A DNA stretch of 64,000 nt. It comes from Candidatus Cloacimonadales bacterium. GTDB lineage: Bacteria > Cloacimonadota > Cloacimonadia > Cloacimonadales > JAFGVF01. The DNA is taken from positions 2,688,001-2,752,000 of the forward strand of contig OY762964.1 in NCBI GenBank assembly GCA_963667035.1. Reading direction: 5' to 3'. The notes under the pieces were generated by a model. That model worked only from the letters and a program-made list of their open reading frames with translations. It was not told the origin of the DNA and did no database searches. Both the position numbers and the translations under genes were made by a program. This document shows positions 22,361 through 62,935 of this stretch, piece after piece (the first letter of the stretch is position 1; the number at the start of each line of letters is the position of its first letter).

Positions 22361-24085
22361 ATGAAAAGGCTGATATTATACATAATTTTTGCTACTTTAA
22401 TAACCTTTTGTTTTGCCGAAATAATCCATATTAGCGGAGCAGTAGAGACATTAGATAATTCCGAGTACATGCCGATACCAATAGAAGGAGCAACAATCCA
22501 TATTGATAATGTGGAAGATGATATTCTTACTAATGAAAACGGTCACTATGAAGTAGATGTAAATTGGATTTGGAATGGACCTATTGTGATAACTTGTTCT
22601 AAACAGGGCTTTACAACAGTAACAGAGACTCTTTTCCCAAGTCATCCATACGAATATGTTAACTTTATTCTTGAAGTTGAAATTCCAACAAATCAGATTA
22701 TCGGAAATGTATTTTATGTAAACGATGTTAATGAAAACGTTCCGATACAAGGAGCATTCATTCAGATCGCTGGGGTTGAAGAATGTGTTGAAACGGATGC
22801 TACGGGTAACTACTCAATTGAATTTGTCTGGAATTGGGATAGTGCGGTAGTTATATGTTGTGAGCATATTGATTATGAGACAGAAACATATAGCTTTTTC
22901 CCTGATGAGAATCCTGCTACAGTTAATTTTGAGATGACTCCTGTTCCGGGACCTTTTACAAATATGATTTACGGTTATGTATCAGATGTTAACTCGGGAA
23001 ATCCCATAGAAAATGCTTTGATAAGTATAAACTCGACACAAGAGACCGAGCAAACGGATTCATCAGGCTACTATGAAATATGTTTTAATTGGAATTGGGA
23101 TAGTGCAGTCGTTATTAATTGCTCTTATACAGGCTATGAGCAACAGACAATCAGTTTGTTTCCTGACGATTATGAAACTCAAGTGGACTTCTATCTTTCA
23201 ACTCAATCATCTCCTGAACCAATAACTATCCAAGGTACTGTTTTTTGCAGTGATTCAAGTGACCAGCCTATTGAAGGAGCAGTACTTACTTTTGGAGCTC
23301 CTGGAGAAGTGCCAAGTTCCGCTACTAATAGTCAAGCTAACGGCACTTACTCTGCATCACTTGTATGGAATTGGTATGGTCCGATTGAGATTACTTGCCA
23401 TGTTCCCGGATACTATCATAGAATAATTGACTATCTTCCTACTGACGATATCTATAATTATGATATCTGCATGCAGGCTCTTCCTGCTTCATTTGAACCG
23501 CCGATTGGATTAACCGGATATTTGGTAAATAATGACAGAGTTGTTCTTGATTGGGTTGAACCAACGACATGGCCGTTATCATATCCCTTAACATATAGAG
23601 TGTATATTAGGGAAAATGATAACCAATATTTTCACCCTCTGGAAAGCATCAGTTACTCTGAGACAACTTACGATTTTACTCTTTCCATGACCGGAGATTG
23701 GGAAGCTGATTTTGCTGTGACAGTATTCGAAGATTCTACTGAAACTACTTTTAGCAATATCTTCCACATCGGATATTCTATCTCAACAGATGATGAATTT
23801 CAGATAACTGTTGAACCGCAACTGTCCGTATACCCTAATCCATTTAATCCTACTACGACAATAAAGCTGGACCTACTCGAAGATGAACAGGTTAAAGCAA
23901 ATATCTACAATATCAAAGGGCAGTTAATAAAAACTCTGATTAACGGTAGGCTTGATAAAGGTGAAAACAATATTATCTGGGACGGAATTGATAACAATAA
24001 CCAAAGCGTAAGTTCGGGAGTTTATCTGTTAAAAGTCGAGACGCATGGAAGAAGTTATATAAGAAAATTATCCTTAATGAAATAG
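22361..24085 (+). CDS. Secreted protein: four carboxypeptidase-regulatory-like repeats, FN3-like domain, FlgD-Ig/T9SS-like C-terminal domain
   Basis: Signal peptide; four PIxGA...TxxxGxY...WxW repeats; C-terminal YPNPFNP...IYNIKGQLI...WDG...SSGVY...KLSLMK. RBS AGGAGG. Confidence 0.85.
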   Translation: MKRLILYIIFATLITFCFAEIIHISGAVETLDNSEYMPIPIEGATIHIDNVEDDILTNENGHYEVDVNWIWNGPIVITCSKQGFTTVTETLFPSHPYEYVNFILEVEIPTNQIIGNVFYVNDVNENVPIQGAFIQIAGVEECVETDATGNYSIEFVWNWDSAVVICCEHIDYETETYSFFPDENPATVNFEMTPVPGPFTNMIYGYVSDVNSGNPIENALISINSTQETEQTDSSGYYEICFNWNWDSAVVINCSYTGYEQQTISLFPDDYETQVDFYLSTQSSPEPITIQGTVFCSDSSDQPIEGAVLTFGAPGEVPSSATNSQANGTYSASLVWNWYGPIEITCHVPGYYHRIIDYLPTDDIYNYDICMQALPASFEPPIGLTGYLVNNDRVVLDWVEPTTWPLSYPLTYRVYIRENDNQYFHPLESISYSETTYDFTLSMTGDWEADFAVTVFEDSTETTFSNIFHIGYSISTDDEFQITVEPQLSVYPNPFNPTTTIKLDLLEDEQVKANIYNIKGQLIKTLINGRLDKGENNIIWDGIDNNNQSVSSGVYLLKVETHGRSYIRKLSLMK

Positions 24086-28605: not shown

Positions 28606-31416
28606 ATGAAGAAAGCTCTAGTAATTGCAAGCATTTTTATCTTTGCTTGTAGTTTATTTGCTTTGGATTTCCAGCAAGATAACTACTCAACTCAAAGCTC
28701 TCAGTTGAATAACCGTTATGTTGAAGTCTCTTATTCAGAAGACTTCGAGAACGGTATGGGAGACTGGACAACATTTGATGGTACAGTTCCTGCTGGAATG
28801 TGGCGTACTTACGATTACAATGGTGAAATGGTCTGGTGGATGGGTGATGAATCTTTAGCCAGTGGTAACCATATTGGTGGTTACTTAGATCAGACTTATG
28901 TTGTTCTTGATACTCCGGCTTTCACTGTTGACGCAAACACATTAACATTTGATTTAAACTATGAAATCGAAACTCCAGGTGGAGAAGACCCTCCTTACAG
29001 TGGTTGGGATGGATGTAATGTAAGAATTTCTACAGACCAAGGTGCTACTTGGACTGTTATAAACCCTACAAGCCCTGCTTATAACTGTTCTGCTTTATTC
29101 TCTTTTGGTAGTATCCACGGAGAAGGCACAAGTATTGCAGGTTGGGGGGGATCATCTAACGGCTGGCAACAAGCTTCTGTCGATATGTCTTCTTATTTGA
29201 ACCAATCAGTTATGATTCGTTTTGCATTTGCTTCTGACGGTGCATATTGTACTTCAGATAACGCTAGCTTATTTGGTATGATGGTTGACAATATCTCTTG
29301 CGGAACTTTCAGTAATGATGCAAGCACTAATACAGGATTTGTTCCATCAAGCATGGTTCCATTAGGTGGAGACATTTGGAATGTTAGAACAAGTACTACC
29401 GCTCCATCAGGAAGCAATATTTTAGCTTGTGTTAGTGATAACAACCAATACCTTCCAAACTTATTAAACTATGTAATTAGTCCTACTATTACTCTTCCTG
29501 AAACAGGTGAGATTTGGGCTGATTTCAAGGTTAAAACAAACTTCAGAGACCCACAATCATCTGAAACTAATCCATCACTTTCCGTACTTGATTATTTCGG
29601 TTTTGAAATATCACCTGATAATGGATCTACATGGTATGCCATGAACAATCCTTATCATGAATCTAATATTCAGGATTATGTTTACACCGGACCGACAAAT
29701 GGCGGTTTAAGTGATTGGGGTTCAATGATTGATAGCTATTCTAGTATCAATGGTAGAATCGATGATTATGCAGGTCAAGACGTTAAATTCCGTATTTATT
29801 TCCGTTCAGATGCTGATACTCCTGGCGGAGATACAGATACTGACGGTTATGGTATTTTTGTTGATGACTTCACGATTTATAATGATATCTACTTACCTCA
29901 ACCTACCGGTATGAACGGTGAGTTTGATCAATCTACCGGTGTTAGTCTTAGTTGGAATGCTCCAGATGCAGCTTCTCCAATTGATATTACATATACAAAC
30001 GGTAGTTGGGCTAGCTATGTTAACGATTCTCAGCCTTATGCAATGAAGATTGAAAACACATATGATATAGCTTTACCACTGCATACAATTAATATTGCGA
30101 TGTATGATACAAGTTCAGAGTTTACTGGAACAGTAGATTTATATGTATATGAAGATTCAAATGGCGAACCTTCTACTACACCTCTTTTCACACTTGAAGA
30201 CCAAGGAAATATCCTTCACAATGAATGGACATCAGTTAATGTTTCTGAATTAGAGTATTCAGTTCCTGCCGGTGCAACTATTTGGGTTGCAGTTGGTGGT
30301 TTCGATACAACAACTCAAGGTCTGTTGTGTGATGATTCTTCTCCAACTTCTGGAAGTGCATGTTATACAAATGGAATGTGGGTTGATTTTAACGAGAGTT
30401 ATGAAACTTTAGTTAACTGTGGTATTAGTGCAACTTTACTTGTTCCTAATCCTGATGTTCCTGTAGCCGATGGCTACAATGTTTACCACTCACTTGATCA
30501 AGATTCTTGGTCAAATATTGGCAGTGTTACCGGAGCTACAACAACTTCTTATATCCATACAGCTCCAACAGCCGGTCAATATAACTATTATAGAGTGACA
30601 GCTTATTATGGAAACAATGAATCTGAAACTTCTAATACAGCTTCTGTATTCGTAATTACTGATGATTATGTATATCTTAATAACACAGACGGAACATCTG
30701 AAATGGGATATACTGTTGGTTTCAATAGCTCTATGGCAACGTATTTCGAGCATGACTATGTTCCTGAAATAGTTAACATAGGTGTTTATGTTGAAACATT
30801 AAACACAGCTCCGCTTGTAATCAGAATATATGATGATAATAATGGCGTTCCAGCAGATAATTATACATACCAGACAACTTATGCTAACGCATCAATTGTA
30901 GCTGGTCTTAATGAAATTGTTGCACCGGAAGGAATGAATGAACAAATTAGCGATATAGTTGACGACGGAAAATTCTGGATTGCTTTATTCGAATTTCCTA
31001 ATGCATCACCTATAGGAGTTGATACATCAGCATCCGGTAACTCTATGAAGAAATTAGGTACTGGTGCTTGGGAAGCAATTACAGAAGGAAATATTATCGT
31101 TCGTACTCTTGTACGTAATGGAACTCAAGATACTCAAGAAGTAGTTAATCCAACAATTCCAATGACAATTAATAACTACCCTAACCCATTCAATCCTGAA
31201 ACTACAATTAAGTATAATTTACCTACATCAGGTCAAACAACACTTAAGATTTATAATATGAAAGGTCAACTTGTTGATACTTTAGTTAACGAAAATCAAG
31301 CTCAAGGACCACAAGAAATTGTTTGGACAGCAGACAATCACACAAGTGGTGTTTATTTCTATAAACTAGAGAATGGCGGAAAAACAGTAGTTAATAAAAT
31401 GGTTCTTATGAAGTAA
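28606..31416 (+). CDS. Secreted modular protein (two beta-sandwich adhesin/InhA-like domains, FN3, FlgD-Ig/T9SS-like C-terminal domain)
   Basis: Signal peptide; two EDFE/ISxDxGxTW/RFxFxSD/G..VDxI modules; FN3 halves; NYPNPFNPETTI...KMVLMK C-terminus. Confidence 0.85.
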   Translation: MKKALVIASIFIFACSLFALDFQQDNYSTQSSQLNNRYVEVSYSEDFENGMGDWTTFDGTVPAGMWRTYDYNGEMVWWMGDESLASGNHIGGYLDQTYVVLDTPAFTVDANTLTFDLNYEIETPGGEDPPYSGWDGCNVRISTDQGATWTVINPTSPAYNCSALFSFGSIHGEGTSIAGWGGSSNGWQQASVDMSSYLNQSVMIRFAFASDGAYCTSDNASLFGMMVDNISCGTFSNDASTNTGFVPSSMVPLGGDIWNVRTSTTAPSGSNILACVSDNNQYLPNLLNYVISPTITLPETGEIWADFKVKTNFRDPQSSETNPSLSVLDYFGFEISPDNGSTWYAMNNPYHESNIQDYVYTGPTNGGLSDWGSMIDSYSSINGRIDDYAGQDVKFRIYFRSDADTPGGDTDTDGYGIFVDDFTIYNDIYLPQPTGMNGEFDQSTGVSLSWNAPDAASPIDITYTNGSWASYVNDSQPYAMKIENTYDIALPLHTINIAMYDTSSEFTGTVDLYVYEDSNGEPSTTPLFTLEDQGNILHNEWTSVNVSELEYSVPAGATIWVAVGGFDTTTQGLLCDDSSPTSGSACYTNGMWVDFNESYETLVNCGISATLLVPNPDVPVADGYNVYHSLDQDSWSNIGSVTGATTTSYIHTAPTAGQYNYYRVTAYYGNNESETSNTASVFVITDDYVYLNNTDGTSEMGYTVGFNSSMATYFEHDYVPEIVNIGVYVETLNTAPLVIRIYDDNNGVPADNYTYQTTYANASIVAGLNEIVAPEGMNEQISDIVDDGKFWIALFEFPNASPIGVDTSASGNSMKKLGTGAWEAITEGNIIVRTLVRNGTQDTQEVVNPTIPMTINNYPNPFNPETTIKYNLPTSGQTTLKIYNMKGQLVDTLVNENQAQGPQEIVWTADNHTSGVYFYKLENGGKTVVNKMVLMK

Positions 31417-54923: not shown

Positions 54924-55478
54924 ATGATAAAAAAGAGTATTTACATAATTGTTGTTATAGCTTTAGCTATTGTAATGATGGCAGCAGACAGTGATAACGA
55001 AGTTAAGAAGCTATTTAGAAAATCAAGAATTAAACAGTGTGGCGGCACTCTGATACAAAAAGAAGACGGATGGTATTTAAAAGCAGATAATAATCAGGAA
55101 CCAATGCTTTATATTGACTCTGCTGATATTGAGAACAACGAGAAAGTGAATTGGGTTAATGGGGCTACAGTAAAATTAGTAGGTCTTGCTCATCAGGAAA
55201 AGCTCTTAGTTACTACTGTCATTACTGAAACTGATACAATATTTGTAAGGGACTCTAAAGGTGATAAATATACGGAAGAAGGTCTTGCTTCAAAGTGGAG
55301 TGTCATTCCTGAAAAATGTATAGGTTGTGGACTCTGTGTAAGATTATGTCCTGTTGATGCAATAACTATGGTTAAAGGCAAAGCTTTGATTGATCAATCA
55401 AAGTGCATTAATTGCGGTAATTGTGCTCATGGTGGAATCAGAGGAAGAGGTTGTCCTACAAGTGCAATTAAGAAATGA
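54924..55478 (+). CDS. Exported protein: N-terminal beta-rich domain plus 2[4Fe-4S] ferredoxin domain (Fd1)
   Basis: Signal peptide MIKKSIYIIVVIALAIVMMA; CIGCGLCVRLCP and CINCGNC-x9-CP. Confidence 0.85.
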   Translation: MIKKSIYIIVVIALAIVMMAADSDNEVKKLFRKSRIKQCGGTLIQKEDGWYLKADNNQEPMLYIDSADIENNEKVNWVNGATVKLVGLAHQEKLLVTTVITETDTIFVRDSKGDKYTEEGLASKWSVIPEKCIGCGLCVRLCPVDAITMVKGKALIDQSKCINCGNCAHGGIRGRGCPTSAIKK

Positions 55479-56466
55479 AATTATCCTATTCATATTAGTA
55501 ACTGTTTTTTTACTATTAGTCGGATGCAACGATTCCATATCCAAACTTTCTGTTGCAAGCAATATTGCACCCGACCCAATATCCGGACTTACAACACTTA
55601 AAGTAAATGACAATTATATTCAAGTTATTTGGGATATACCTATTAGTGATTACTTGGACCATTACATGGTTTATATATGTGAGAATAGCGATGTATTGAC
55701 TTTAACTGATAACTTATATACTGATAAGCTCCTCGGATTTGCAGGAAAGAATAGACAGGGTATCACTATTAGAAATCTGCAAGCATCTACAGAGTATAAA
55801 CTTGGTGTTATTTCTGTTAACAAGTATGGAGCAAATAATGGACTTCAAGATTCAATTGTAGTTACAACTACCGACTTGCATATAAATGATACTGAAGTGC
55901 CACAAACACCGGAGTTAGTTAATATCTCAGCCCATTTAACAAAAGGTATTGATTCCGCAGCTAATACTGAGATTGAAATAGAGTTTACCCCTGGGAATGG
56001 AGAAGAGTTAATTACACCTGATATTAGGTTTTCTCCTATGCCTGCTTTTGCGAACTGGGATTCAGCTTTTCCAATCACTAATTCGGAATTATTTGTTCCT
56101 GAGGTTTTAAATGGAGAGACAGGTGTTATAAGATTTAATTTTCAAGATGCAGCTTGGCCTATACCGTTCCAAATGAATGATTTTGAGTTTATGATATTAC
56201 TTAAAAGCAAAGATGCAGAAAACAACGTATCAGAAAACTCCATAAATACTATGGGTATATTCAAAGTTGAAGTTCAATCAGGCTGTATAAAATGCTGGAA
56301 CTGCATAAATATTTGTCCTGAAAACGCTATTTCTAAATCAAGTTCAAAGGCCGTAATTGATATAACAAAATGCACCAGATGTGGCGATTGTGTGTTGAAA
56401 TGTGCAGATAAAGGTTCTGAAGTAATCTTCTTCAAGACTGAAGAAACCGGAGGCTCCAAATGGTAA
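55462..56466 (+). CDS. Lipoprotein: FN3-like domain(s) plus C-terminal 2[4Fe-4S] ferredoxin domain (Fd2)
   Basis: GTG start after GAGGAAGAGG gives MQLRNEIILFILVTVFLLLVG-C. FN3 hallmarks (W, Y, NL...TEY.L.V.SVN); CIKCWNCINICP and CTRCGDCVLKC. Confidence 0.8.
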   Translation: MQLRNEIILFILVTVFLLLVGCNDSISKLSVASNIAPDPISGLTTLKVNDNYIQVIWDIPISDYLDHYMVYICENSDVLTLTDNLYTDKLLGFAGKNRQGITIRNLQASTEYKLGVISVNKYGANNGLQDSIVVTTTDLHINDTEVPQTPELVNISAHLTKGIDSAANTEIEIEFTPGNGEELITPDIRFSPMPAFANWDSAFPITNSELFVPEVLNGETGVIRFNFQDAAWPIPFQMNDFEFMILLKSKDAENNVSENSINTMGIFKVEVQSGCIKCWNCINICPENAISKSSSKAVIDITKCTRCGDCVLKCADKGSEVIFFKTEETGGSKW

Positions 56467-56711
56467 AGAAACTGGTATTGCTTGGCTTAATACTTATAAC
56501 GATTCTTCTTGCAGTAACTATTGAAGACAAGCGTAGCCCACTGGTTCTCAAGAATAAATGCGTAGGATGTGGAGACTGTATTGAGGCATGTCCGGTTGAA
56601 GCTATTGAGCTTAAAAAAGGTAAAGCTACTATAGACAACCAAATATGTATAAATTGCGGAATATGCTTCAAAACTTGTACATACAGTGCCATCAGGAGTG
56701 AGAATGAATAA
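56460..56711 (+). CDS. Small exported or anchored 2[4Fe-4S] ferredoxin (Fd3)
   Basis: MVKKLVLLGLILITILLA leader; CVGCGDCIEACP and CINCGICFKTC; RBS GGAGG. Confidence 0.85.
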   Translation: MVKKLVLLGLILITILLAVTIEDKRSPLVLKNKCVGCGDCIEACPVEAIELKKGKATIDNQICINCGICFKTCTYSAIRSENE

Positions 56712-56946
56712 GATAGTTATCGTTCTTGTCATAATGGTTGTTGCACTTGCTATCGGTTGTGATAAAGTTACAAAGCCCGAATATAACGTTGAGAATTCAA
56801 CATGTAATGCTTGTGGTAACTGCATTGATGTATGTCCTAACGATGCTATAGAGTTTGATAAAAATGGAAAAGCAATTATAGACCAAACTAAATGTATTCA
56901 ATGTGCCAAGTGCATTCCGGTTTGCCCTCAAGGAGCGATATACTAA
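56704..56946 (+). CDS. Small lipoprotein 2[4Fe-4S] ferredoxin (Fd4)
   Basis: ATG 56704 after AGGAG; MNKIVIVLVIMVVALAIG-C lipobox; CNACGNCIDVCP and CIQCAKCIPVCP. Confidence 0.85.
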   Translation: MNKIVIVLVIMVVALAIGCDKVTKPEYNVENSTCNACGNCIDVCPNDAIEFDKNGKAIIDQTKCIQCAKCIPVCPQGAIY

Positions 56947-58154
56947 TGAAATACTTAACTATAATTATACTTTTGTTTGTCATTAGTTCCGCTTTTTCTT
57001 TTGACCTTAAAAATCTCAATGATTTCTCGATAGGATACTATAGTGTTGATGGAAAGAACTTAATGAATTCTAGGGAGAAGCTCTTCACGGACATATCTTT
57101 TAATAGCTATTTCGCCGGTGGTATTGAGCTTGACCTTTTGATCTCAGAAAATGAATATAAACAAAAGAATTTCTATGTTTATGATAGATTTAAATCATAT
57201 CTAACTTGGAACTATGAGAGCACAACTCTCTCTACTTCTTTCAGTAACACTCTTTTTGATAATGCTAAAACCAATGAGATAATTTTAACAGGTTTGTTCG
57301 ATCCGGTAATAAAACCTGTTTCAAAAAACAGTCTTACTTTTGCAGCTACACATAATCAGTGGAATTTTAACATTGATGGAGCAATCAGGTATAGGAACCT
57401 TAATTATGATTATCATCTATCTGAGGAAACAGAGCATGAGAACGACCTATTTATCGATTTAACGCTTTCAAGAGATATTATTGAGGGATTAGGAGCCTTT
57501 ACAACAATATATTATAAGAATGATTTGAATGATATACCTAATTCGGAGATTCCGGATAACTTCGAGATTAACGACCCGAGTAAATATTATAATGAACTTA
57601 CACTAGGGGGAGGAGTATACTGGAAAAAACGTTTTAGTAATAATCAAGTGATTAAAGTATCAACAGCATATCTACATAGAGACGGTGAAACAATTCCTGA
57701 TTATCTAACTCACTATTTTATAACGGATGTACGCTACCCATATTCATTATCACCACTTCTATATGGTTATATCTCAGGTATTAGCAGAGGATGTTATAAT
57801 GAACAGGACGATAAGTTTTACAGAGTTTCCAATCTTATTAGAGCTCAATTAAAGTATTCACTTAATCCTTTTGATTCTCGGGCTTATATTTGTGCCGGTT
57901 TTAAATACAATCCGGAGAACAAAACAGATAGATATTACGGGGAAGTTTCGTATCCGATTGATAGATTCTTAACTCTAAGGGTTGCCGATTATATCTCTCC
58001 TAAATATTACAATAACGTTGTTACCGGAATAGAATACTCTTTTGCAAAATACAATTCGATATATTTGGAGAACACTTATTCTATCGTCAAAAGTGATGTA
58101 CTCGCATTAGCTGATAACAATGAGTTAAGATTAGGTACAAGGATAGCATTTTAA
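56946..58154 (+). CDS. Putative outer-membrane beta-barrel protein
   Basis: ATG 56946 overlaps the Fd4 stop (TAATG). Signal peptide ending SAFS; many amphipathic Tyr/Phe-rich strands; C-terminal ELRLGTRIAF. Confidence 0.7.
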   Translation: MKYLTIIILLFVISSAFSFDLKNLNDFSIGYYSVDGKNLMNSREKLFTDISFNSYFAGGIELDLLISENEYKQKNFYVYDRFKSYLTWNYESTTLSTSFSNTLFDNAKTNEIILTGLFDPVIKPVSKNSLTFAATHNQWNFNIDGAIRYRNLNYDYHLSEETEHENDLFIDLTLSRDIIEGLGAFTTIYYKNDLNDIPNSEIPDNFEINDPSKYYNELTLGGGVYWKKRFSNNQVIKVSTAYLHRDGETIPDYLTHYFITDVRYPYSLSPLLYGYISGISRGCYNEQDDKFYRVSNLIRAQLKYSLNPFDSRAYICAGFKYNPENKTDRYYGEVSYPIDRFLTLRVADYISPKYYNNVVTGIEYSFAKYNSIYLENTYSIVKSDVLALADNNELRLGTRIAF

Positions 58155-59125
58155 TGTTTAAAACTTTCACGGAAGGATTTATTCTGGGACTAACAACCGG
58201 TACTGTGTGCTTGGTTAGCTGCACTCCCATATATCTACCTTTTATAATTTCAGAAAAACGTTCTATCAGTAAAAACTTTCTGAAAGTAATGGAAATCTCT
58301 GCAGGTAGATTCTTTTCTTACTTGTCATTTGGTGCCTTAGCAGGATGGTTAGGTGGAAATATTGCTACGATAGATAGAAATCTGTTCACGGGAATCGCCT
58401 ATATTCTTTTAACGGTTTTTATGCTTCTATCGTTCTTTAGATTAACTAGAAAAGAGAAGAGTTGCCATATACCCAAATTTGTTAATGTAACTAGAAGTGC
58501 ATTTTTATTAGGCATATTTACCGGGATTAACTTTTGTCCTTCCTTTTTAATTGCATTATCGAAAGCAATTGACTTGGCAGGTCCTTTGAGTGGAATCTTG
58601 TTATTCTTTGGTTTCTTTGTCGGCACTTCACTTTTCCTAATTCCTTTAGCATTTACCGGATTTCTTTCAAAGATGAAGCTTATGAAAGTAATTGCAAGAT
58701 ATGCTTCAATTGCAATAGCTCTCTACTTCTTATACTCAGGTATCCATAAGATAAAGGATTTTATTGTTTCATCTCAAGCCAGAATTGTAGATCCGATATC
58801 AGTTGAATACAAGTTAACTTTGTTTACTGATGATCCTAATTCTGAATTTTATAAAGTACTTTCAGATTCATTAATAGCAATTAAATCTAATCAGTTCACA
58901 TTTGTAAGTACTGATAAACTAGGAATATCAACTTTAGCATCTGTTCAGAAAGGGACAATTCTATTGATAGCTCCGAATTTGGTAAACGATACAAACATCA
59001 AAGCTATTAAAAATACTGACCATTATATCATGAATCCACAGCATTCACCAGCCGGCGTGATTAATTTCATGAGGAATTATAGTATTAAGGTTGGAAAGAA
59101 CCAATTCTTAGAATGGGAATTTTAA
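58154..59125 (+). CDS. DsbD_2 / CcdA-like six-TM protein with C-terminal soluble domain
   Basis: CLVSC in TM1 (Cys19/23), GRFFSY, GINFCP (Cys128), F..GT; TAATG coupling. Confidence 0.75.
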   Translation: MFKTFTEGFILGLTTGTVCLVSCTPIYLPFIISEKRSISKNFLKVMEISAGRFFSYLSFGALAGWLGGNIATIDRNLFTGIAYILLTVFMLLSFFRLTRKEKSCHIPKFVNVTRSAFLLGIFTGINFCPSFLIALSKAIDLAGPLSGILLFFGFFVGTSLFLIPLAFTGFLSKMKLMKVIARYASIAIALYFLYSGIHKIKDFIVSSQARIVDPISVEYKLTLFTDDPNSEFYKVLSDSLIAIKSNQFTFVSTDKLGISTLASVQKGTILLIAPNLVNDTNIKAIKNTDHYIMNPQHSPAGVINFMRNYSIKVGKNQFLEWEF

Positions 59126-59406
59126 ATACTGCCGAACTATAATGTAATGACTGTTAATTTAGACAGCCATTCATGTTTTATAATAGAGATTGAATACCAA
59201 AACTGTTTATCCTATACTGAGATTATTGAGTTTCAGATTATCCAAAAATGGGTAAATACTCAAAAAAATGGGGCAATAAATAAAAAAACTTGATTGATTT
59301 AGGTGTTATCAGAATATGATTTAAAGAAGAATTGGTGGAAAACTTGCATAACTGTATTTACATTTTATAATTAATATAATAGTTAAATAAATCTACGGAG
59401 GATTTG

Positions 59407-61008
59407 ATGCGCAAGAGCTTACTAATTGCCGTAACTCTCTTAATGCTACTTATTAGTAGCCTGTTAGCTCAGGCTAGCCCTGAAGTTGAGTTCGAGTTCC
59501 AAAGGGGAGATGGAACCGGAACACTGTTAATGAAATTCACTATTCCTGAACACTATTATCAATCATATGTTGTTGGCGATGATATGCCAATGTTCTATAT
59601 GGAGGCAAGTGCTGAAGGTTTTGAGTTTGAACCAGCTAACTATCCTAATCCTGACAATGTTAAAATCGGAGAGACAGTTAAGTATAAACATGAAGCAGTA
59701 TTATCTCAAACTTTCACTTATAATCCAGAGACAAAAGATGGTAAGATAAAAATTGCTTACGGTTATCAGTTATGTGAAGCAGGAGCTGCTTGCGAGTTAC
59801 CTATAGATGACGAAGTAACTCTTTCTTTTGCAACCGGAAAACCTATACAAAACGAAGAAGTTGTAATGGAAGAAACTATCTCTGAAGGAGATGCCGAAGA
59901 AAATCAAAAAATCATTGAAGCTTTCACAAAACTAAATGATAGATATGTTGTAAAAGGCTCAAAAACAGGATTTATTAAAGCGGAAAAGTTTATTGCTTTC
60001 CTCGAAAATCCAAGTGCAATCGGTGATTCAGGCTCAGAAGTTTCTGATAAGAAAGAAGGATTCGAAGGCAAAAGCATCTGGCTTATACTAATATCCATTT
60101 TGATCGGTGGACTTTTAATGAATCTTACACCATGTGTACTGCCAATGATACCGATAACAGTTGCTATAATCGGAGCAGGTTCACAAGGGCAATCAAAAGG
60201 CAAAGGCATAATGCTGGGGACTAGTTACGGACTCGGAATGGCAATCGCCTATGGAGCTTTAGGATTAATAGCAGCGTTAACCGGTTCTGCTTTTGGACAA
60301 CTTAACTCTTCATGGATCTTTAATGCAGTTATTGCATTAATCTTTATATTGTTAGCTCTAGCCATGTTTGATGTATTTGCAATAGACTTTTCAAAATATC
60401 AGAATCCTAACAAGAGGGCTCAACAGCGTGGTAAAGTAGCAGGAGTTTTTGTAATGGGTATCTTTGCTGCTCTATTAGCAGGAGCATGTGTTGCCCCAAT
60501 CCTCATTGCTGTTATTATTTATGCCGGGAATTTATACAGTCAGGGTAATGTTCTCGGATTGGCTCTTCCTTTCCTTCTTGGTATTGGAATGGCACTACCT
60601 TGGCCATTCTTAGGTGGAGGTATGTCTATTCTTCCGAAACCAGGTAACTGGATGAAGTGGGTAAAGATTATATTTGGTGTTTTCATACTATTTATGGCAT
60701 ATAAATATAGCTCTAATGCTTACCATATCCTCAAGCCCAAACCGGTTGTTGGAACAATATCTCAAATTGAGACAGCTATAAAAGAAAAGAAACCCATATT
60801 CTTAGATTTTACAGCGTCCTGGTGTAGTTCATGTAAAGAAATGGATAGGTCAACATTCAAAGATGATGGTGTTATTGAGACTCTTAAAAAATATGAGTTT
60901 ATTAAATACTATGCCGAAAAGCCAAGTAACTCACCAGCAAAGGAAGTTATGAATTTATTTAGTGTTAAAGGTCTTCCAACCTATATTATTTTAGAGCCTA
61001 GGGAATAG
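59407..61008 (+). CDS. dsbD: Thiol:disulfide interchange protein DsbD (three-domain)
   Basis: Signal peptide; N-domain CEAGAAC; TM domain LTPCVLPMIP and ACVAP; thioredoxin domain FTASWCSSC. Confidence 0.9.
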   Translation: MRKSLLIAVTLLMLLISSLLAQASPEVEFEFQRGDGTGTLLMKFTIPEHYYQSYVVGDDMPMFYMEASAEGFEFEPANYPNPDNVKIGETVKYKHEAVLSQTFTYNPETKDGKIKIAYGYQLCEAGAACELPIDDEVTLSFATGKPIQNEEVVMEETISEGDAEENQKIIEAFTKLNDRYVVKGSKTGFIKAEKFIAFLENPSAIGDSGSEVSDKKEGFEGKSIWLILISILIGGLLMNLTPCVLPMIPITVAIIGAGSQGQSKGKGIMLGTSYGLGMAIAYGALGLIAALTGSAFGQLNSSWIFNAVIALIFILLALAMFDVFAIDFSKYQNPNKRAQQRGKVAGVFVMGIFAALLAGACVAPILIAVIIYAGNLYSQGNVLGLALPFLLGIGMALPWPFLGGGMSILPKPGNWMKWVKIIFGVFILFMAYKYSSNAYHILKPKPVVGTISQIETAIKEKKPIFLDFTASWCSSCKEMDRSTFKDDGVIETLKKYEFIKYYAEKPSNSPAKEVMNLFSVKGLPTYIILEPRE

Positions 61009-61010
61009 AT

Positions 61011-62402
61011 ATGAAGAGATTTTCAATTATAATTGCTTTATTACTTACAATTAGTGCTTGCGAGAGATTTACAAAACCGGAACCGGAACCTACAATAACT
61101 GAAAAGGTTACCGATTACTTTGATAATTACGTTGAATCAGCTTTAAATGATATGACAGTTGACGATGTAGGTAGTATTATGGCTCTATACAGCGATGATT
61201 ACCTTAATAATGGTCTTGAAAAAACAGATATTAAACAATCATTCTTGGATTATGCTAGTCAGAATAACATTAATAACTTAACCATTTCATTTACTATTGA
61301 GAATGAAGATTCACTAAAAGTTAGCTGGTCTTTCAATAATAGTAAAAACATACCCCAGATAGATTACTTAATTCCTGATTCAACAAGTAAGTACAAGTTC
61401 TATGGAAATCAAGTATCCTCGATGCAAGATATGATATATACTTTCTTTGAAGAGGAAATCTTACCTGCAATAGAACAAATTTCAGAGTCTGATGTAAGTA
61501 GTATAATGGCATTTTATTGTGATGACTACTTAAACAATGGATCTGTAAAATCAGATGTTGAGCAAGAATATATTGATTTTTTGAGTAATGGTAATGTAGT
61601 CCAATTCTCAATGCATGTAACAATTGTTAATGAAGAGCAGATGAAAGTTAGCTGGTCTTTTTGCCAAACCGAAACGATGAAGAGAATTGACTACCTGATG
61701 GAGAATGGTGATAGTTTCTTATTCTATGGGGACCAACAACAACTTCCACCAACAGAAACAACTAAAGCTTTCATTGAAGTTCTCACAGCAACTTGGTGCC
61801 CTAACTGTCCCGAGTTAGAGCACAAGATAGAAGAAATGAAAGAAACTTATGGAAATGATTTGTTCTACGTTGAATATCACTATAACGATAACCTTAGTGG
61901 TGATTTTAGTGACATCCAAAGCTGGTATAACATATATAGTGCTCCTACCGGAGTATTGCAAGGAACCAACATATTTGTTGGCTCGGAAAGTACTACGCTT
62001 AACCAGTACAATAATATTATCAGTAGCATAACCGCAACAAATGCTGATATTGTACTTAATAATTTAGAATACACTCATGAAGGTGATAAATATAGTTTCA
62101 GCATAGATATTGATAATCCCGGTATGGTTGATACAGAAGATTTGTATTTAAGATATCTTATTGTTGAAGATACATCTTCATCACTTAACAATGCAGGGAA
62201 TCCATGCAAAAATGTAATGTTGGAACAGAATAAAATAGCATTATCCGATGTTGATTTTTATGGAACTTATGAGTTTGATCATACATTGTTAAATACTTTA
62301 CCGGAAGATGCTAAGATAATTATATTTGTTCAGACTATGCCTGAAACATTTAATGAATCAACATGTAAAATCCATAACGTAATGGAAGCAGACCTAAACT
62401 AA
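61011..62402 (+). CDS. Lipoprotein with duplicated N-terminal domain and thioredoxin-like/Omp28-like C-terminal region
   Basis: Lipobox ISAC; two ~100-aa repeats; EVLTATWCPNCP, VEYH, AP; C-terminal Ig-like part with IIIFVQ. Confidence 0.75.
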   Translation: MKRFSIIIALLLTISACERFTKPEPEPTITEKVTDYFDNYVESALNDMTVDDVGSIMALYSDDYLNNGLEKTDIKQSFLDYASQNNINNLTISFTIENEDSLKVSWSFNNSKNIPQIDYLIPDSTSKYKFYGNQVSSMQDMIYTFFEEEILPAIEQISESDVSSIMAFYCDDYLNNGSVKSDVEQEYIDFLSNGNVVQFSMHVTIVNEEQMKVSWSFCQTETMKRIDYLMENGDSFLFYGDQQQLPPTETTKAFIEVLTATWCPNCPELEHKIEEMKETYGNDLFYVEYHYNDNLSGDFSDIQSWYNIYSAPTGVLQGTNIFVGSESTTLNQYNNIISSITATNADIVLNNLEYTHEGDKYSFSIDIDNPGMVDTEDLYLRYLIVEDTSSSLNNAGNPCKNVMLEQNKIALSDVDFYGTYEFDHTLLNTLPEDAKIIIFVQTMPETFNESTCKIHNVMEADLN

Positions 62403-62413
62403 TAGGAGTAATA

Positions 62414-62935
62414 ATGAAACATAGACTTATATTAATAGCAATCGTACTTTTACTTGCCGGTTCTCTTTTTGCAGAGAAGAAGTTTGCAGATTTCAAGCTC
62501 GAAGATGTTAAAGGTAATAAAGTGTCATTAGACACTTTACTCAAAGATGGTCCTATCGTAGTTGATTTTTGGGCAAGTTGGTGTGATCCATGTAAAAAAG
62601 CTCTTCCGCATCTTGATGAGATTGATAAGAAATATGACGGTATAAAAGTTGTAGCAATCTCAATAGACTCTCCAAGAAAAATGACCCGAGCAAAAGCCTT
62701 TGTTAAAAAGAATAAATATGACTTTATTACTCTGTTTGATAGTGATCAGATGATTTCAAAAAACATGGGTGTAAAGAATATACCACATACATTTATAGTT
62801 GATAAAGATGGTACTGTTGTGTTTGAGTTTATGTCAGGTAAACCCGGAGGGGAGAAGATACTTGAAGCTGAAATCCAGAAACTTTTAGGTATTGAGACTT
62901 CTACCGAAGAAGTAGAAGAAGAAGTGGTTGAATAG
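62414..62935 (+). CDS. TlpA/ResA-family thiol-disulfide oxidoreductase
   Basis: Signal peptide; DFKLED..G, VDFWASWCDPC, IP.TFIVDK.G. Confidence 0.9.
   Translation: MKHRLILIAIVLLLAGSLFAEKKFADFKLEDVKGNKVSLDTLLKDGPIVVDFWASWCDPCKKALPHLDEIDKKYDGIKVVAISIDSPRKMTRAKAFVKKNKYDFITLFDSDQMISKNMGVKNIPHTFIVDKDGTVVFEFMSGKPGGEKILEAEIQKLLGIETSTEEVEEEVVE

Follow-up and report, generated by a model that had tools for sequence, protein, structure and literature searches.

A cluster of four ferredoxin genes with export signals, an outer-membrane barrel and a CcdA-like protein in Cloacimonadota: a candidate haem-free envelope redox relay

The window analysed here, a stretch of 64,000 nucleotides from the genome of an anaerobe (Candidatus Cloacimonadales), raises the question whether electrons could be moved across a bacterial envelope by ferredoxins, without cytochromes. 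Six genes on the same strand abut or overlap, by 17, 7, 8, 1 and 1 bp in order (from the coordinates, with start codons read directly), see Table 1. A preliminary description had read them as four ferredoxins, a barrel and a DsbD_2-like protein, together forming an envelope electron conduit. Its ORF coordinates match ours, and the gene content is confirmed by ORFs and Pfam. We suggest that the six genes encode a haem-free envelope redox relay reaching the cell surface. This is the best reading of the cluster, held with confidence and doubt in about equal parts.

Table 1. Genes of the cluster at 54924-59125 (positions in the window).
Feature	Position	Strand	Description
Fd1	54924-55478	+	184 aa; Fer4 dicluster
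Fd2	55462 (GTG start)-56466	+	334 aa; fn3 and Fer4 dicluster; lipoprotein-type signal
Fd3	56460-56711	+	83 aa; signal peptide, minimal 2x[4Fe-4S] ferredoxin
Fd4	56704-56946	+	80 aa; lipoprotein signal, minimal 2x[4Fe-4S] ferredoxin
Outer-membrane beta-barrel	56946-58154	+	402 aa; AF2 model and Foldseek; no Pfam/NCBIfam family
DsbD_2/CcdA-like inner-membrane protein	58154-59125	+	323 aa; PF13386, six TM helices

The ferredoxin genes

All four ferredoxins match Fer4, Fer4_6, Fer4_7 or Fer4_9 above the Pfam gathering score, and by these Fer4 clan models Fd1-Fd4 are predicted to be cluster-binding 2x[4Fe-4S] ferredoxin-domain proteins. In Fd1 (Fer4 at residues 127-169, E 1.2e-14), an N-terminal signal or anchor is followed by a non-Pfam domain of about 100 aa, for which there is only a weak Atlas lead (0.76), and by the C-terminal dicluster, which has eight cysteines and a long insert before the last cysteine of the second cluster motif. 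Fd2 starts with a signal ending in ..LLVGC, then N-D-S, and continues with an fn3 domain (27.8 bits, cut-off 25) and a C-terminal dicluster (Fer4_9, 30.5 bits). It has an orthologue of 65% identity in one related locus (L013), and it is the short form of fn3-rich, Fer4-bearing lipoproteins of 600-1720 aa in the relatives, where a lipobox precedes fn3 arrays with Fer4 domains at both ends.

The other two are smaller. Fd3 matches Fer4_6 (E 4.3e-13), and its orthologues keep all eight cluster cysteines (40/40 sequences) and each have an N-terminal hydrophobic leader. In Fd4, an ..AIGC lipobox and a 14-residue tether precede the ferredoxin. Among 40 sequences of this type, seven cluster cysteines are invariant while the eighth is either Cys or, in 4 sequences, Asp, a known alternative [4Fe-4S] ligand.

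The four ferredoxins had been proposed to be paralogous from a shared linker. On its own the linker does not prove this, as 'AI..GKA.ID' usually connects the two cluster motifs in Fer4 diclusters. In the relatives, the four domains do give mutual BLASTP matches (27-59% identity, 36-106 residues). Genome-wide (3.1 Mb), the motif CxxCxxCxxxC is found in 35 open frames, and only five of these have a signal-like N-terminus by a heuristic criterion. Four of the five are Fd1-Fd4, so the grouping of exported ferredoxin genes is not a chance event.

Export signals and the side of the membrane

Signal peptides and lipoboxes were assigned by a heuristic reading of the N-termini, i.e., an n-region with K/R followed by a hydrophobic run. 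All of Fd1-Fd4 show this pattern, and the run ends in ..VGC in Fd2 and ..IGC in Fd4, in agreement with the leaders (Fd1, Fd3) and lipoboxes (Fd2, Fd4) recognised earlier. The same type of leader is present in 109 of the 115 small ferredoxin ORFs of related clusters, and all 40 sequences of the Fd4 type share the lipobox cysteine.

Hydrophobic N-termini can also anchor a protein the other way around. RnfB has an N-terminal helix and cytoplasmic Fer4 domains, and by this precedent the ferredoxins could be anchored N-out, face the cytoplasm and feed the DsbD_2 protein for thiol reduction in the periplasm, the barrel being unrelated. A DsbD/thioredoxin/TlpA set does follow the cluster in this window, and there are NCBIfam RnfB matches, weak and far below the cut-off. 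However, the DsbD/TlpA genes adjoin the cluster in 0/11 relatives, i.e., they do not belong to the conserved cluster, whereas the barrel is syntenic in 49/63 loci. The position of K/R on the N-terminal side of the leaders, the invariant lipobox cysteine, the type IX C-terminal domains and fn3 arrays on paralogues, and the twin-arginine leaders on one orthologue pair all argue for ferredoxin domains facing outward, as originally claimed. We regard the cytoplasmic orientation as highly improbable.

The preliminary description also stated that 2[4Fe-4S] ferredoxins are normally cytoplasmic. This is true in general but not absolute, as exported ferredoxin-type proteins of the Tat-dependent NapG type are known. 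In the NapGH, NosGH and MauMN systems, a periplasmic polyferredoxin exported by Tat is paired with a membrane Fe-S protein of the NapH type. Similarly, Fer4-type ferredoxins would lie outside the cytoplasm here, and NapH-like Fer4_5 proteins are encoded in many related clusters. However, the window's cluster has no NapH gene, each protein would hold two clusters and not four, and the signals of Fd1-Fd4 are of the Sec or lipoprotein type, in a phylum sample without TatC. We know of no barrel or DsbD_2 partner in the Nap, Nos or Mau systems.

The leaders of Fd1-Fd4 carry KK, K or R, but never RR. A search for TatC in this genome and 40 relatives gave no match (0/41), nor did one for TatA in this genome (0/1). 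Export of these ferredoxins must therefore occur via Sec, with the polypeptides crossing unfolded. RR leaders are confined to an orthologue pair in a Chitinispirillaceae version of the cluster (L094), from a genome that also encodes TatC. To our knowledge, no Fe-S assembly takes place outside the cytoplasm. Without Tat, the relay would thus depend on cofactor loading in that compartment, which counts against it.

Ferredoxins that arrive as apo-proteins are also what would be expected if the cluster handled iron or sulfide. The Cys-rich domains would then bind Fe-S or assemble it outside the cytoplasm, so that Fe(II) or sulfide could be taken up, stored or detoxified; the barrel would be the uptake channel, and the DsbD_2 protein, as a member of the LysE/DsbD superfamily, would transport metal or Fe-S. 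A heavy-metal ATPase of the P1B type lies directly upstream of the cluster in one genus, as this would suggest. However, the ferredoxins keep the full electron-carrier signature, CP motifs included, and the Cys-to-Asp switch is typical of redox ferredoxins. The twin-arginine version would export holo-proteins and yet retains DsbD_2, and the linked NapH-like proteins and flavoprotein oxidoreductases suggest electron flow. We find a role in iron or sulfide handling rather unlikely.

A further export route is seen beyond the four ferredoxins. None of Fd1-Fd4 carries a Por_Secre_tail (Pfam), but the fifth signal-bearing ferredoxin of the genome does (263 aa, unlinked, C1:491164-491955; 31.7 bits), as does a 178-aa ferredoxin encoded within the relatives' clusters (28.9 bits, cut-off 27). 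The genome has a match to a SprA-type translocon and 129 type IX secretion C-terminal domains. Both ferredoxins thus resemble type IX cargo of the FCB group, although their passenger, an Fe-S ferredoxin domain, differs from that of known cargo; our literature search found no report of a ferredoxin domain secreted in this way.

The barrel and the CcdA-like protein

The protein encoded at 56946 is, by its AF2 model, an outer-membrane barrel, as had been proposed. It has a signal peptide, 20 predicted strands (pLDDT 82.2, pTM 0.73) and the C-terminal Phe noticed earlier, which is invariant in 14/14 homologues. A Foldseek search of the PDB with this model gives 429 hits at E<=0.001; the 50 listed are outer-membrane barrels without exception, and those closest in structure are substrate porins and TonB-receptor barrels. 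At E<=0.01 the protein is matched by no family in Pfam or NCBIfam, and its own family is small, with 82 representatives at E<=0.001 among 1.84 billion.

The last gene encodes a six-helix protein with a clear match to DsbD_2 (PF13386, 71.7 bits, cut-off 24.9, E 1e-19), while DsbD_TM (PF02683) stays below threshold (18.3, cut-off 27.1). As first described, the protein contains cysteines, four of them invariant: C19 and C23 form a CxxxC in TM1, C128 is located in TM4 (NFCPSF) and C104 belongs to a Cys-His pair in loop 3. The first two and C128 do not vary among 36 sequences. From the distribution of K/R, loops 1, 3 and 5 are probably cytoplasmic and the C-terminal domain, 115 aa of alpha/beta type and of no family, periplasmic. 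There are 235 homologues; among the 120 listed, all with a taxon name are from Cloacimonadota.

Structurally, the AF2 model (pLDDT 84.3) is most similar to CcdA 5vkv (TM 0.41/0.54), a weak match (E 0.18), and its best Z of 8-9 is within the range common for helical bundles. The helix number, the cysteines in TM1 and TM4 and the PF13386 match are shared with CcdA/DsbD. In contrast to these, it has two more invariant cysteines, in the CxxxC and the Cys-His pair, an additional C-terminal domain, and ferredoxins and a barrel as conserved partners instead of a thioredoxin-fold protein; no conserved gene for such a partner is found in 11 neighbourhoods. PF13386 also includes metal transporters, such as UreH-like metal permeases. 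This, and the weakness of the CcdA match, count against the relay, and the cysteines in TM1 and TM4 together with a Cys-His pair in a cytoplasmic loop would suit the metal or Fe-S transporter of the iron and sulfide explanation.

Conservation and the proposed relay

Among related loci, 63 have 2.3 kb or more of upstream sequence, and 49 of these contain the core of two small ferredoxins, barrel and DsbD_2, which bears out the synteny expected earlier. In 11 neighbourhoods, Fd3-type and Fd4-type genes always lie upstream of the barrel (11/11), DsbD_2 follows it in ten, and ten have an Fd1-type gene. However, 14/63 loci do not have the core arrangement, some having DsbD_2 without ferredoxins, and of the 202 Cloacimonadota genomes searched, 86 have a match to the barrel and 116 have none. 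This patchiness speaks against the relay. Genome-wide, none of 8776 ORFs of at least 60 aa has two or more CxxCH, and the six cluster proteins have none at all, so 'cytochrome-free' was an apt description.

From the domain content, the conserved export signals, the barrel fold, the synteny and the fact that neither Tat nor multihaem cytochromes were found, the following mechanism can be proposed. All four ferredoxins would be exported by Sec; Fd1 and Fd3 would act as periplasmic carriers, either soluble or signal-anchored, Fd4 as a lipoprotein on a short tether and Fd2 as a lipoprotein on an fn3 stalk, possibly at the surface. After loading outside the cytoplasm, they would make contact with each other and with the dedicated barrel, which could be a docking site or a passage for them through the outer membrane. 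The CcdA-like protein would connect the module to the cytoplasm and could feed in reducing equivalents, either by starting the chain or by keeping the 32 cluster-ligand cysteines reduced; alternatively, it could provide the metal from which clusters are built once the proteins have passed Sec. Type IX secretion would send the separately encoded fifth ferredoxin to the cell surface. Low-potential electrons would then move between a donor and an acceptor, from the inner membrane to the cell surface or in the opposite direction. However, two ferredoxins of 60 residues are too short to bridge a periplasm unless they diffuse.

The conduit reading of the preliminary description is thus partly supported. 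Three points on which it could have failed were examined in silico, and it withstood each: the ferredoxins do not appear to face the cytoplasm, the genes are syntenic and the fifth protein is a barrel. As further steps, the exported proteins would carry their Fe-S clusters beyond the cytoplasm, form a chain by way of the barrel and pass electrons out of or into the cell.

The layout is similar to that of the porin-cytochrome conduits (MtrCAB, PioAB and Geobacter Pcc/Ext), in which a single operon also encodes a periplasmic carrier, an adjacent dedicated barrel and a redox lipoprotein. The presumed task, to move electrons across the outer membrane, would be the same. The cofactors are different, as [4Fe-4S] clusters of much lower potential would replace haem. 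MtrB has 26 strands, while the barrel here has 20 predicted strands and, with no Pfam or NCBIfam match at E<=0.01, shows no homology to MtrB or PioB. The CcdA-like inner-membrane protein and surface display via type IX secretion are additions. We found no description of this gene cluster or architecture in a literature search. If the relay is true, it would allow extracellular or interspecies electron transfer without cytochromes. Direct interspecies electron transfer has been proposed for Cloacimonadota, and in passages of PMC13082233 pili and poly-glutamate are the sole candidates.

The same anatomy and export evidence would also fit a redox enzyme system outside the cytoplasm that is not a through-conduit. 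In such a system the ferredoxins would serve a periplasmic or surface substrate, such as sulfur/polysulfide, disulfides, metal(loid)s, humics or traces of O2, with the barrel as substrate porin and DsbD_2 as reductant supply. The structural proximity of the barrel to substrate porins and TonB-receptor barrels agrees with this, and the neighbours of the cluster, which vary by lineage (metal P-type ATPases, xanthine-dehydrogenase-family genes, sensor kinases), fit a general-purpose supply of reductant. However, the conserved core contains no exported catalytic subunit of the molybdopterin, haem, flavin or Ni-Fe type, and type IX secretion and fn3-stalk display point past the periplasm. We consider a redox enzyme system possible, but on the unlikely side.

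For the relay, the source of electrons is a weak point in this genome, as the window's cluster has no obvious donor or terminal enzyme and the sole NapH-like gene is 750 kb away. The relatives provide candidates for electron input, which favour the relay: several have NapH-like Fer4_5 membrane proteins inside their clusters, and a linked flavoprotein of 830 aa (Pyr_redox_2/Fer4_20/DHO_dh/Fer4) is found beside the xanthine-dehydrogenase-family genes.

Layout of the gene cluster and its conservation

The six genes lie on one strand, and the preliminary description had their frames overlapping or abutting by 17, 7, 8, 1 and 1 bp; reading the coordinates and start codons gave the same six genes and the same overlaps, see the table. 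The next gene downstream of the DsbD_2 gene follows after 278 bp. Pfam finds Fer4-type dicluster domains in Fd1, Fd2, Fd3 and Fd4, an fn3 domain in addition in Fd2, no domain in the 402-aa protein and a DsbD_2 domain (PF13386, 71.7 bits against a cut-off of 24.9) in the 323-aa protein. None of the six proteins is above a family cut-off in NCBIfam, and the N-terminal domain of Fd1 has a top Atlas score of 0.76 (MamS_MamX in 53% of members), which is under the lead threshold.

The host genome (G000) is a single contig of 3.1 Mb and is 98% complete. The sequencing runs listed as containing the stretch are DNA or unknown-type runs from two studies, with no RNA run among them. The motif CxxCxxCxxxC occurs in 35 of its open frames, and only five of these 35 also have a signal-like N-terminus, for which our own heuristic asks for a hydrophobic leader behind a K/R n-region. 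Fd1 to Fd4 are four of these five, so the grouping of signal-bearing ferredoxins is not by chance.

Features of the gene cluster, the genes downstream of it and the unlinked fifth ferredoxin (window positions unless a contig or locus is named; C1 is the contig of the host genome and L099 its stretch around the fifth ferredoxin)
Feature	Position	Strand	Basis and remarks
Fd1	54924-55478	+	open frame
Fd2	55462-56466	+	open frame; start codon GTG, read directly
Fd3	56460-56711	+	open frame
Fd4	56704-56946	+	open frame; ATG start preceded by AGGAG
402-aa protein (barrel)	56946-58154	+	open frame; junction with Fd4 is TAATG
323-aa DsbD_2 protein	58154-59125	+	open frame
Full DsbD (DsbD_N, DsbD_TM, thioredoxin)	59404-61008	+	Pfam
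463-aa lipoprotein, weak thioredoxin_3 match	61011-62402	+	Pfam
TlpA/ResA-like redoxin	62414-62935	+	Pfam
DUF6029 protein	62939 to window end (64000)	+	Pfam
Fifth signal-bearing ferredoxin	G000:C1:491164-491955 (= L099:6165-6956)	-	outside the window, unlinked to the cluster

In blastp comparisons, the two small ferredoxin genes (Fd3-type and Fd4-type) are directly upstream of the barrel gene in 11 of 11 same-order neighbourhoods, with DsbD_2 directly downstream of it in 10/11 and an Fd1-type gene in 10/11. For a wider sample, an alignment of DsbD_2 was scanned against one genome per species, which gave 75 loci. Most of these (67) are labelled as Cloacimonad-something, and the rest include Fibrobacterota, Chitinispirillaceae, Chitinivibrionales, one 'Delongbacteria' and one 'Armatimonadota'. 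The order of two small Fer4 genes, a gene for 330-520 aa and DsbD_2 is found in 49 of the 63 loci that have at least 2.3 kb of upstream DNA, and the middle gene matches the barrel HMM in 41 of these 49. It is absent from 14 of the 63, some of which hold DsbD_2 paralogues without ferredoxins. The ferredoxin-barrel-DsbD_2 synteny is thus kept among relatives. Of 202 Cloacimonadota genomes that are at least 80% complete, 86 have the barrel, 83 of them as a single match; among the high-quality genomes it is 64 of 151, and by genus 28 of 60.

The thiol-disulfide genes downstream in the window (DsbD, thioredoxin-like and TlpA) were considered as part of the system and rejected, because they lie beside the cluster in none of 11 relatives.

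The outer-membrane barrel and the DsbD_2 membrane protein

The 402-aa protein had been read as an outer-membrane barrel, and this is what the predictions indicate. In a full-length alignment of fourteen homologues the C-terminal Phe is invariant, and the AlphaFold2 model built from this alignment (pLDDT 82.2, pTM 0.73) has a signal helix followed by 20 strands. Foldseek against the PDB gives 429 matches at E<=0.001, the best 50 of which are all outer-membrane barrels; they include porins, OccK channels, TonB-receptor barrels and an usher, with TM up to 0.60 (22-strand receptors). In the Atlas the protein falls in unnamed or porin-like clusters with scores of 0.94-0.96, which say nothing beyond 'barrel'. 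A full HMM scan of 1.84 billion cluster representatives finds 82 family members at E<=0.001 and 72 at E<=1e-10, compared with only four retrieved by a word-indexed search. On these counts the family is small and private.

One alternative would make the barrel a substrate porin and the cluster a supply for an extracytoplasmic reductase. Porins are indeed among the structural matches; we consider this alternative unlikely. Co-folding of the barrel with Fd3, Fd4 and four 4Fe-4S clusters scored 0.80, a control with Fd3 swapped for an unrelated protein 0.81, and two controls with the barrel swapped 0.00 and 0.00; these scores speak neither in favour of binding nor against it.

The 323-aa protein belongs to the DsbD_2 family, from which it differs by additional invariant Cys and an extra domain. 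It has 235 homologues, and among the 120 matches listed all carry PF13386, the names are 'sulfite exporter TauE/SafE family' or 'hypothetical protein', every name bearing a taxon is that of a Cloacimonadota MAG, and the closest named organism is Candidatus Zophobacter franzmannii (72% identity). Four Cys are invariant in 36 sequences, Fibrobacterota-type ones included: C19 and C23 form a CxxxC motif in helix 1, C104, mostly followed by His, is in loop 3, and C128 is in the NFCPSF motif of helix 4. In the AlphaFold2 model (pLDDT 84.3), six long helices are followed by an alpha/beta domain at the C-terminus (residues 209-322). Since loops 1, 3 and 5 contain 14 K/R and the opposite side about 2, we infer that the N-terminus and the C-terminal domain probably face the periplasm and C104 the cytoplasm.

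Structural comparison of this protein gives few leads. Foldseek has no match in the PDB at E<=0.001, and the only sizeable overlap is a weak match to CcdA (5vkv, TM 0.41/0.54). The best hit of a sequence profile search of the PDB had an E of 0.31, which is not meaningful. The C-terminal domain has only generic alpha/beta matches in VIA-align (LacI or periplasmic-binding type, Z about 7.5). VIA-align also gives Z 8.4 to the Rnf chain 8ahx_A and 8.2 to NqrE 7xk3_E, values that are common for helical bundles (Z 8-9), so an intramembrane Fe-S site as in RnfA/E and NqrD/E was kept as an idea only. It is quite improbable that the cluster serves iron or sulfide handling with DsbD_2 as a metal transporter.

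Export of ferredoxins in genomes without Tat

The ferredoxin domains had been described as exported, and several independent lines agree with this. In the related clusters, the combination of a K/R n-region and a hydrophobic leader is present in 109 of the 115 small ferredoxins, in all 20 mid-size ORFs that have Fer4 at the N-terminus and in 24 of the 26 large ones; it is missing from the five 830-aa flavoproteins of these clusters. The Cys that ends the Fd4-type leader is invariant in 40 sequences while the leader itself varies freely, which argues for a lipobox. A small residue and Cys also end the leader in 18 of the 26 large (at least 300 aa) Fer4 ORFs, and the Fd2 counterparts in relatives are 600-1720 aa long with Fer4 at one or both ends and up to seven fn3 domains. 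Both small ferredoxins of the Chitinispirillaceae locus L094 (5238-5749) begin with a twin-arginine leader, and TatC is encoded in that genome. TatC is likewise present in the genomes of the Fibrobacterota-type loci L095, L096 and L098, whose small-ferredoxin leaders have no clear RR.

Further ferredoxins carry domains for type IX secretion. The 178-aa ferredoxin that substitutes for Fd2 in a sister genus bears a Por_Secre_tail, the C-terminal sorting domain (28.9 bits against a cut-off of 27), and another ferredoxin matches FlgD_ig and CHU_C under their cut-offs. The fifth signal-bearing ferredoxin of the host genome consists of a signal, a Fer4 dicluster, CarboxypepD_reg and Por_Secre_tail (31.7 bits), an architecture found in only four proteins of a 5.8-billion collection. 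A 2063-aa frame of the host genome matches SprA_N, and Por_Secre_tail is matched 129 times in this genome, all of these being above the cut-off. Two of the 129 are inside the window at 23828-24070 and 31177-31404 (+), where they end frames of 586 and 943 aa, and are unrelated type IX cargo.

Anchored ferredoxins that face the cytoplasm, with an RnfB-like topology, would be an alternative to export. This is contradicted by the leaders, the lipobox Cys, the type IX domains, the fn3 lipoproteins and the RR leaders, and judged from these sequences it is very unlikely. A Bacteroidota-type lipoprotein export signal on Fd2 was set aside. According to the accessible text of PMC5080379, acidic residues come after a polar one in that signal; Fd2 continues after the lipobox as C-N-D-S and its large relatives as C-T/S-D-x, which is a partial resemblance to a signal defined in a different phylum.

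The cluster ligands are well kept. Across 40 Fd3-type sequences, none of the eight cluster Cys varies. In the 40 Fd4-type sequences the same holds for seven of them; the remaining one, which is the second Cys of the second motif, is Asp (CxxDGxC) in four loci from four Cloacimonadota lineages (L047, L050, L054, L057). A Cys-to-Asp change of this kind also occurs in functional [4Fe-4S] ferredoxins, e.g. that of Pyrococcus. By their ligands, the Fd3- and Fd4-type proteins thus resemble genuine electron carriers.

Neither TatC nor TatA was found in the host genome, and TatC was found in none of the 41 genomes of the order that were searched (35 of high quality), nor in two further Cloacimonadota. 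The same search detected TatC in 11 of the 14 controls and in each of the three Fibrobacterota-type genomes bearing the cluster. By the accepted view, Fe-S proteins exit the cytoplasm only folded, via Tat, and this genome without Tat has five signal-bearing ferredoxins. This is a second surprise that went beyond the preliminary description. In the absence of Tat, the ferredoxins of this organism have to cross the inner membrane unfolded through Sec, and any cluster has to be inserted afterwards; we know of no extracytoplasmic Fe-S maturation that has been described. Clostridial-type ferredoxins can be rebuilt chemically from their apo-protein with Fe(II), sulfide and thiol, so by analogy reduced Cys in a sulfidic, anoxic periplasm could be sufficient. 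The obvious candidate to hold the 32 Cys reduced, in the way that CcdA keeps apocytochrome Cys reduced, or to export metal is DsbD_2. As DsbD_2 is retained in the one Tat-type version, we also considered it as the electron entry of the chain.

A possible haem-free relay, known systems and neighbouring genes

No open frame of at least 60 aa in the host genome (0 of 8776) has two or more CxxCH motifs, and 26 have one. We suggest that the cluster could be a haem-free envelope redox relay, a reading to which we give an even chance. In such a relay, reducing equivalents would reach the periplasmic side via DsbD_2, or via a NapH-like protein where present, and Fd1 and Fd3 would be the carriers across the periplasm. 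Fd4 would sit on a 14-residue lipid tether at the membrane face, most simply at the mouth of the barrel, and the barrel would be the route by which a ferredoxin domain, or a chain of them, reaches the outside. Surface clusters would be presented by Fd2 on its fn3 stalk and by the type IX-secreted ferredoxin. The anatomy, signals, synteny and absences on which this scheme builds are observed; its contacts, cofactor loading, direction of flow and partners are proposed. Of the four tests that the preliminary description had named as capable of refuting its cytochrome-free conduit, the conduit passed the three that lend themselves to in silico work (domain orientation, synteny and barrel), and the function is still a hypothesis.

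A more speculative proposal includes cofactor loading. In Cloacimonadota without Tat and c-type cytochromes, apo-ferredoxins would leave via Sec, Lol and type IX, [4Fe-4S] clusters would be loaded outside the cytoplasm with the help of DsbD_2 (as thiol reductant or Fe/Fe-S exporter), and the holo-proteins would be threaded through the private 20-strand barrel. We regard the complete scheme as doubtful; if true, it would be a first in two respects, as a route of Fe-S maturation outside the cytoplasm and as an outer-membrane electron conduit that uses Fe-S instead of haem. Partners such as CO2-reducing methanogens would then receive electrons at the potential of ferredoxin.

The cluster would function in the manner of a porin-cytochrome conduit without belonging to this group, as it has neither a haem partner nor a barrel of the MtrB/PioB family. 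Exported ferredoxins are a feature that it has in common with NapGH-type systems, but Tat signals and, in the window, NapH are missing. Extracellular electron transfer is today ascribed to multihaem cytochromes, flavins and pili, and Cloacimonadota are abundant syntrophs in digesters and anoxic sediments. Conserved surface-directed ferredoxins with their own barrel are a concrete, testable candidate for electron transfer in this phylum. If either this or the Fe-S export is true, the recognition of electroactive organisms in metagenomes would change, since counting cytochromes would miss such organisms, and low-potential surface redox parts would become available for bioelectrochemistry.

In the accessible full text on exported ferredoxins, Cloacimonadota, type IX or cytochrome-independent transfer, subscription journals aside, no description of such a cluster was found. 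The accessible parts of Cloacimonadota and digester genomics papers (PMC8542988, PMC7382037, PMC13082233, PMC12590816) do not mention exported ferredoxins. In the text seen, direct interspecies electron transfer with Methanothrix is proposed for Cloacimonadota via pili or poly-glutamate only (PMC13082233), and porin-cytochrome variants with Fe-S subunits exist always alongside cytochromes (PMC5566968).

The cluster of the window has no obvious electron donor gene, and the single NapH-like gene of the host genome is unlinked to it. Relatives have NapH-like Fer4_5 membrane proteins within their clusters (e.g. L035, L081), with fused polyferredoxin forms in L094 and L096. The cluster of another clade contains an 830-aa Pyr_redox_2/Fer4_20/DHO_dh/Fer4 flavoprotein adjoining xanthine-dehydrogenase-family genes. 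On the same strand upstream of the cluster, xanthine-dehydrogenase-family genes are found in L037, L047, L067 and L075 and the dihydropyrimidine-dehydrogenase-like 830-aa flavoprotein in L037, L047, L054 and L075; in L037 and L075 these genes run straight into DsbD_2 without a barrel. Genes for OMP decarboxylase, phosphoribosyltransferase and amidohydrolase lie beside other loci. Together, these neighbours suggest a link to nucleobase metabolism.

Other neighbours were seen in single lineages. In one genus, a heavy-metal P1B-type ATPase (HMA, E1-E2 ATPase) and a type IX-tagged beta-lactamase-fold protein are encoded just upstream of Fd1 on the same strand (Pfam-tested in L026 and L031, same-size ORFs in the same place in L033 and L093). 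In L051, L058 and L076, which belong to one clade, DsbD_2 is followed by a TPR/HisKA protein, a histidine-kinase ATPase protein and a sigma-54 response regulator, and L058 has HydF upstream of the cluster. In the window, a class-3 O-methyltransferase (PF01596, 54278-54913, +) ends 10 bp ahead of Fd1; the sister species (L013) has an orthologue with 88% identity at the corresponding position, and none was seen in other genera.
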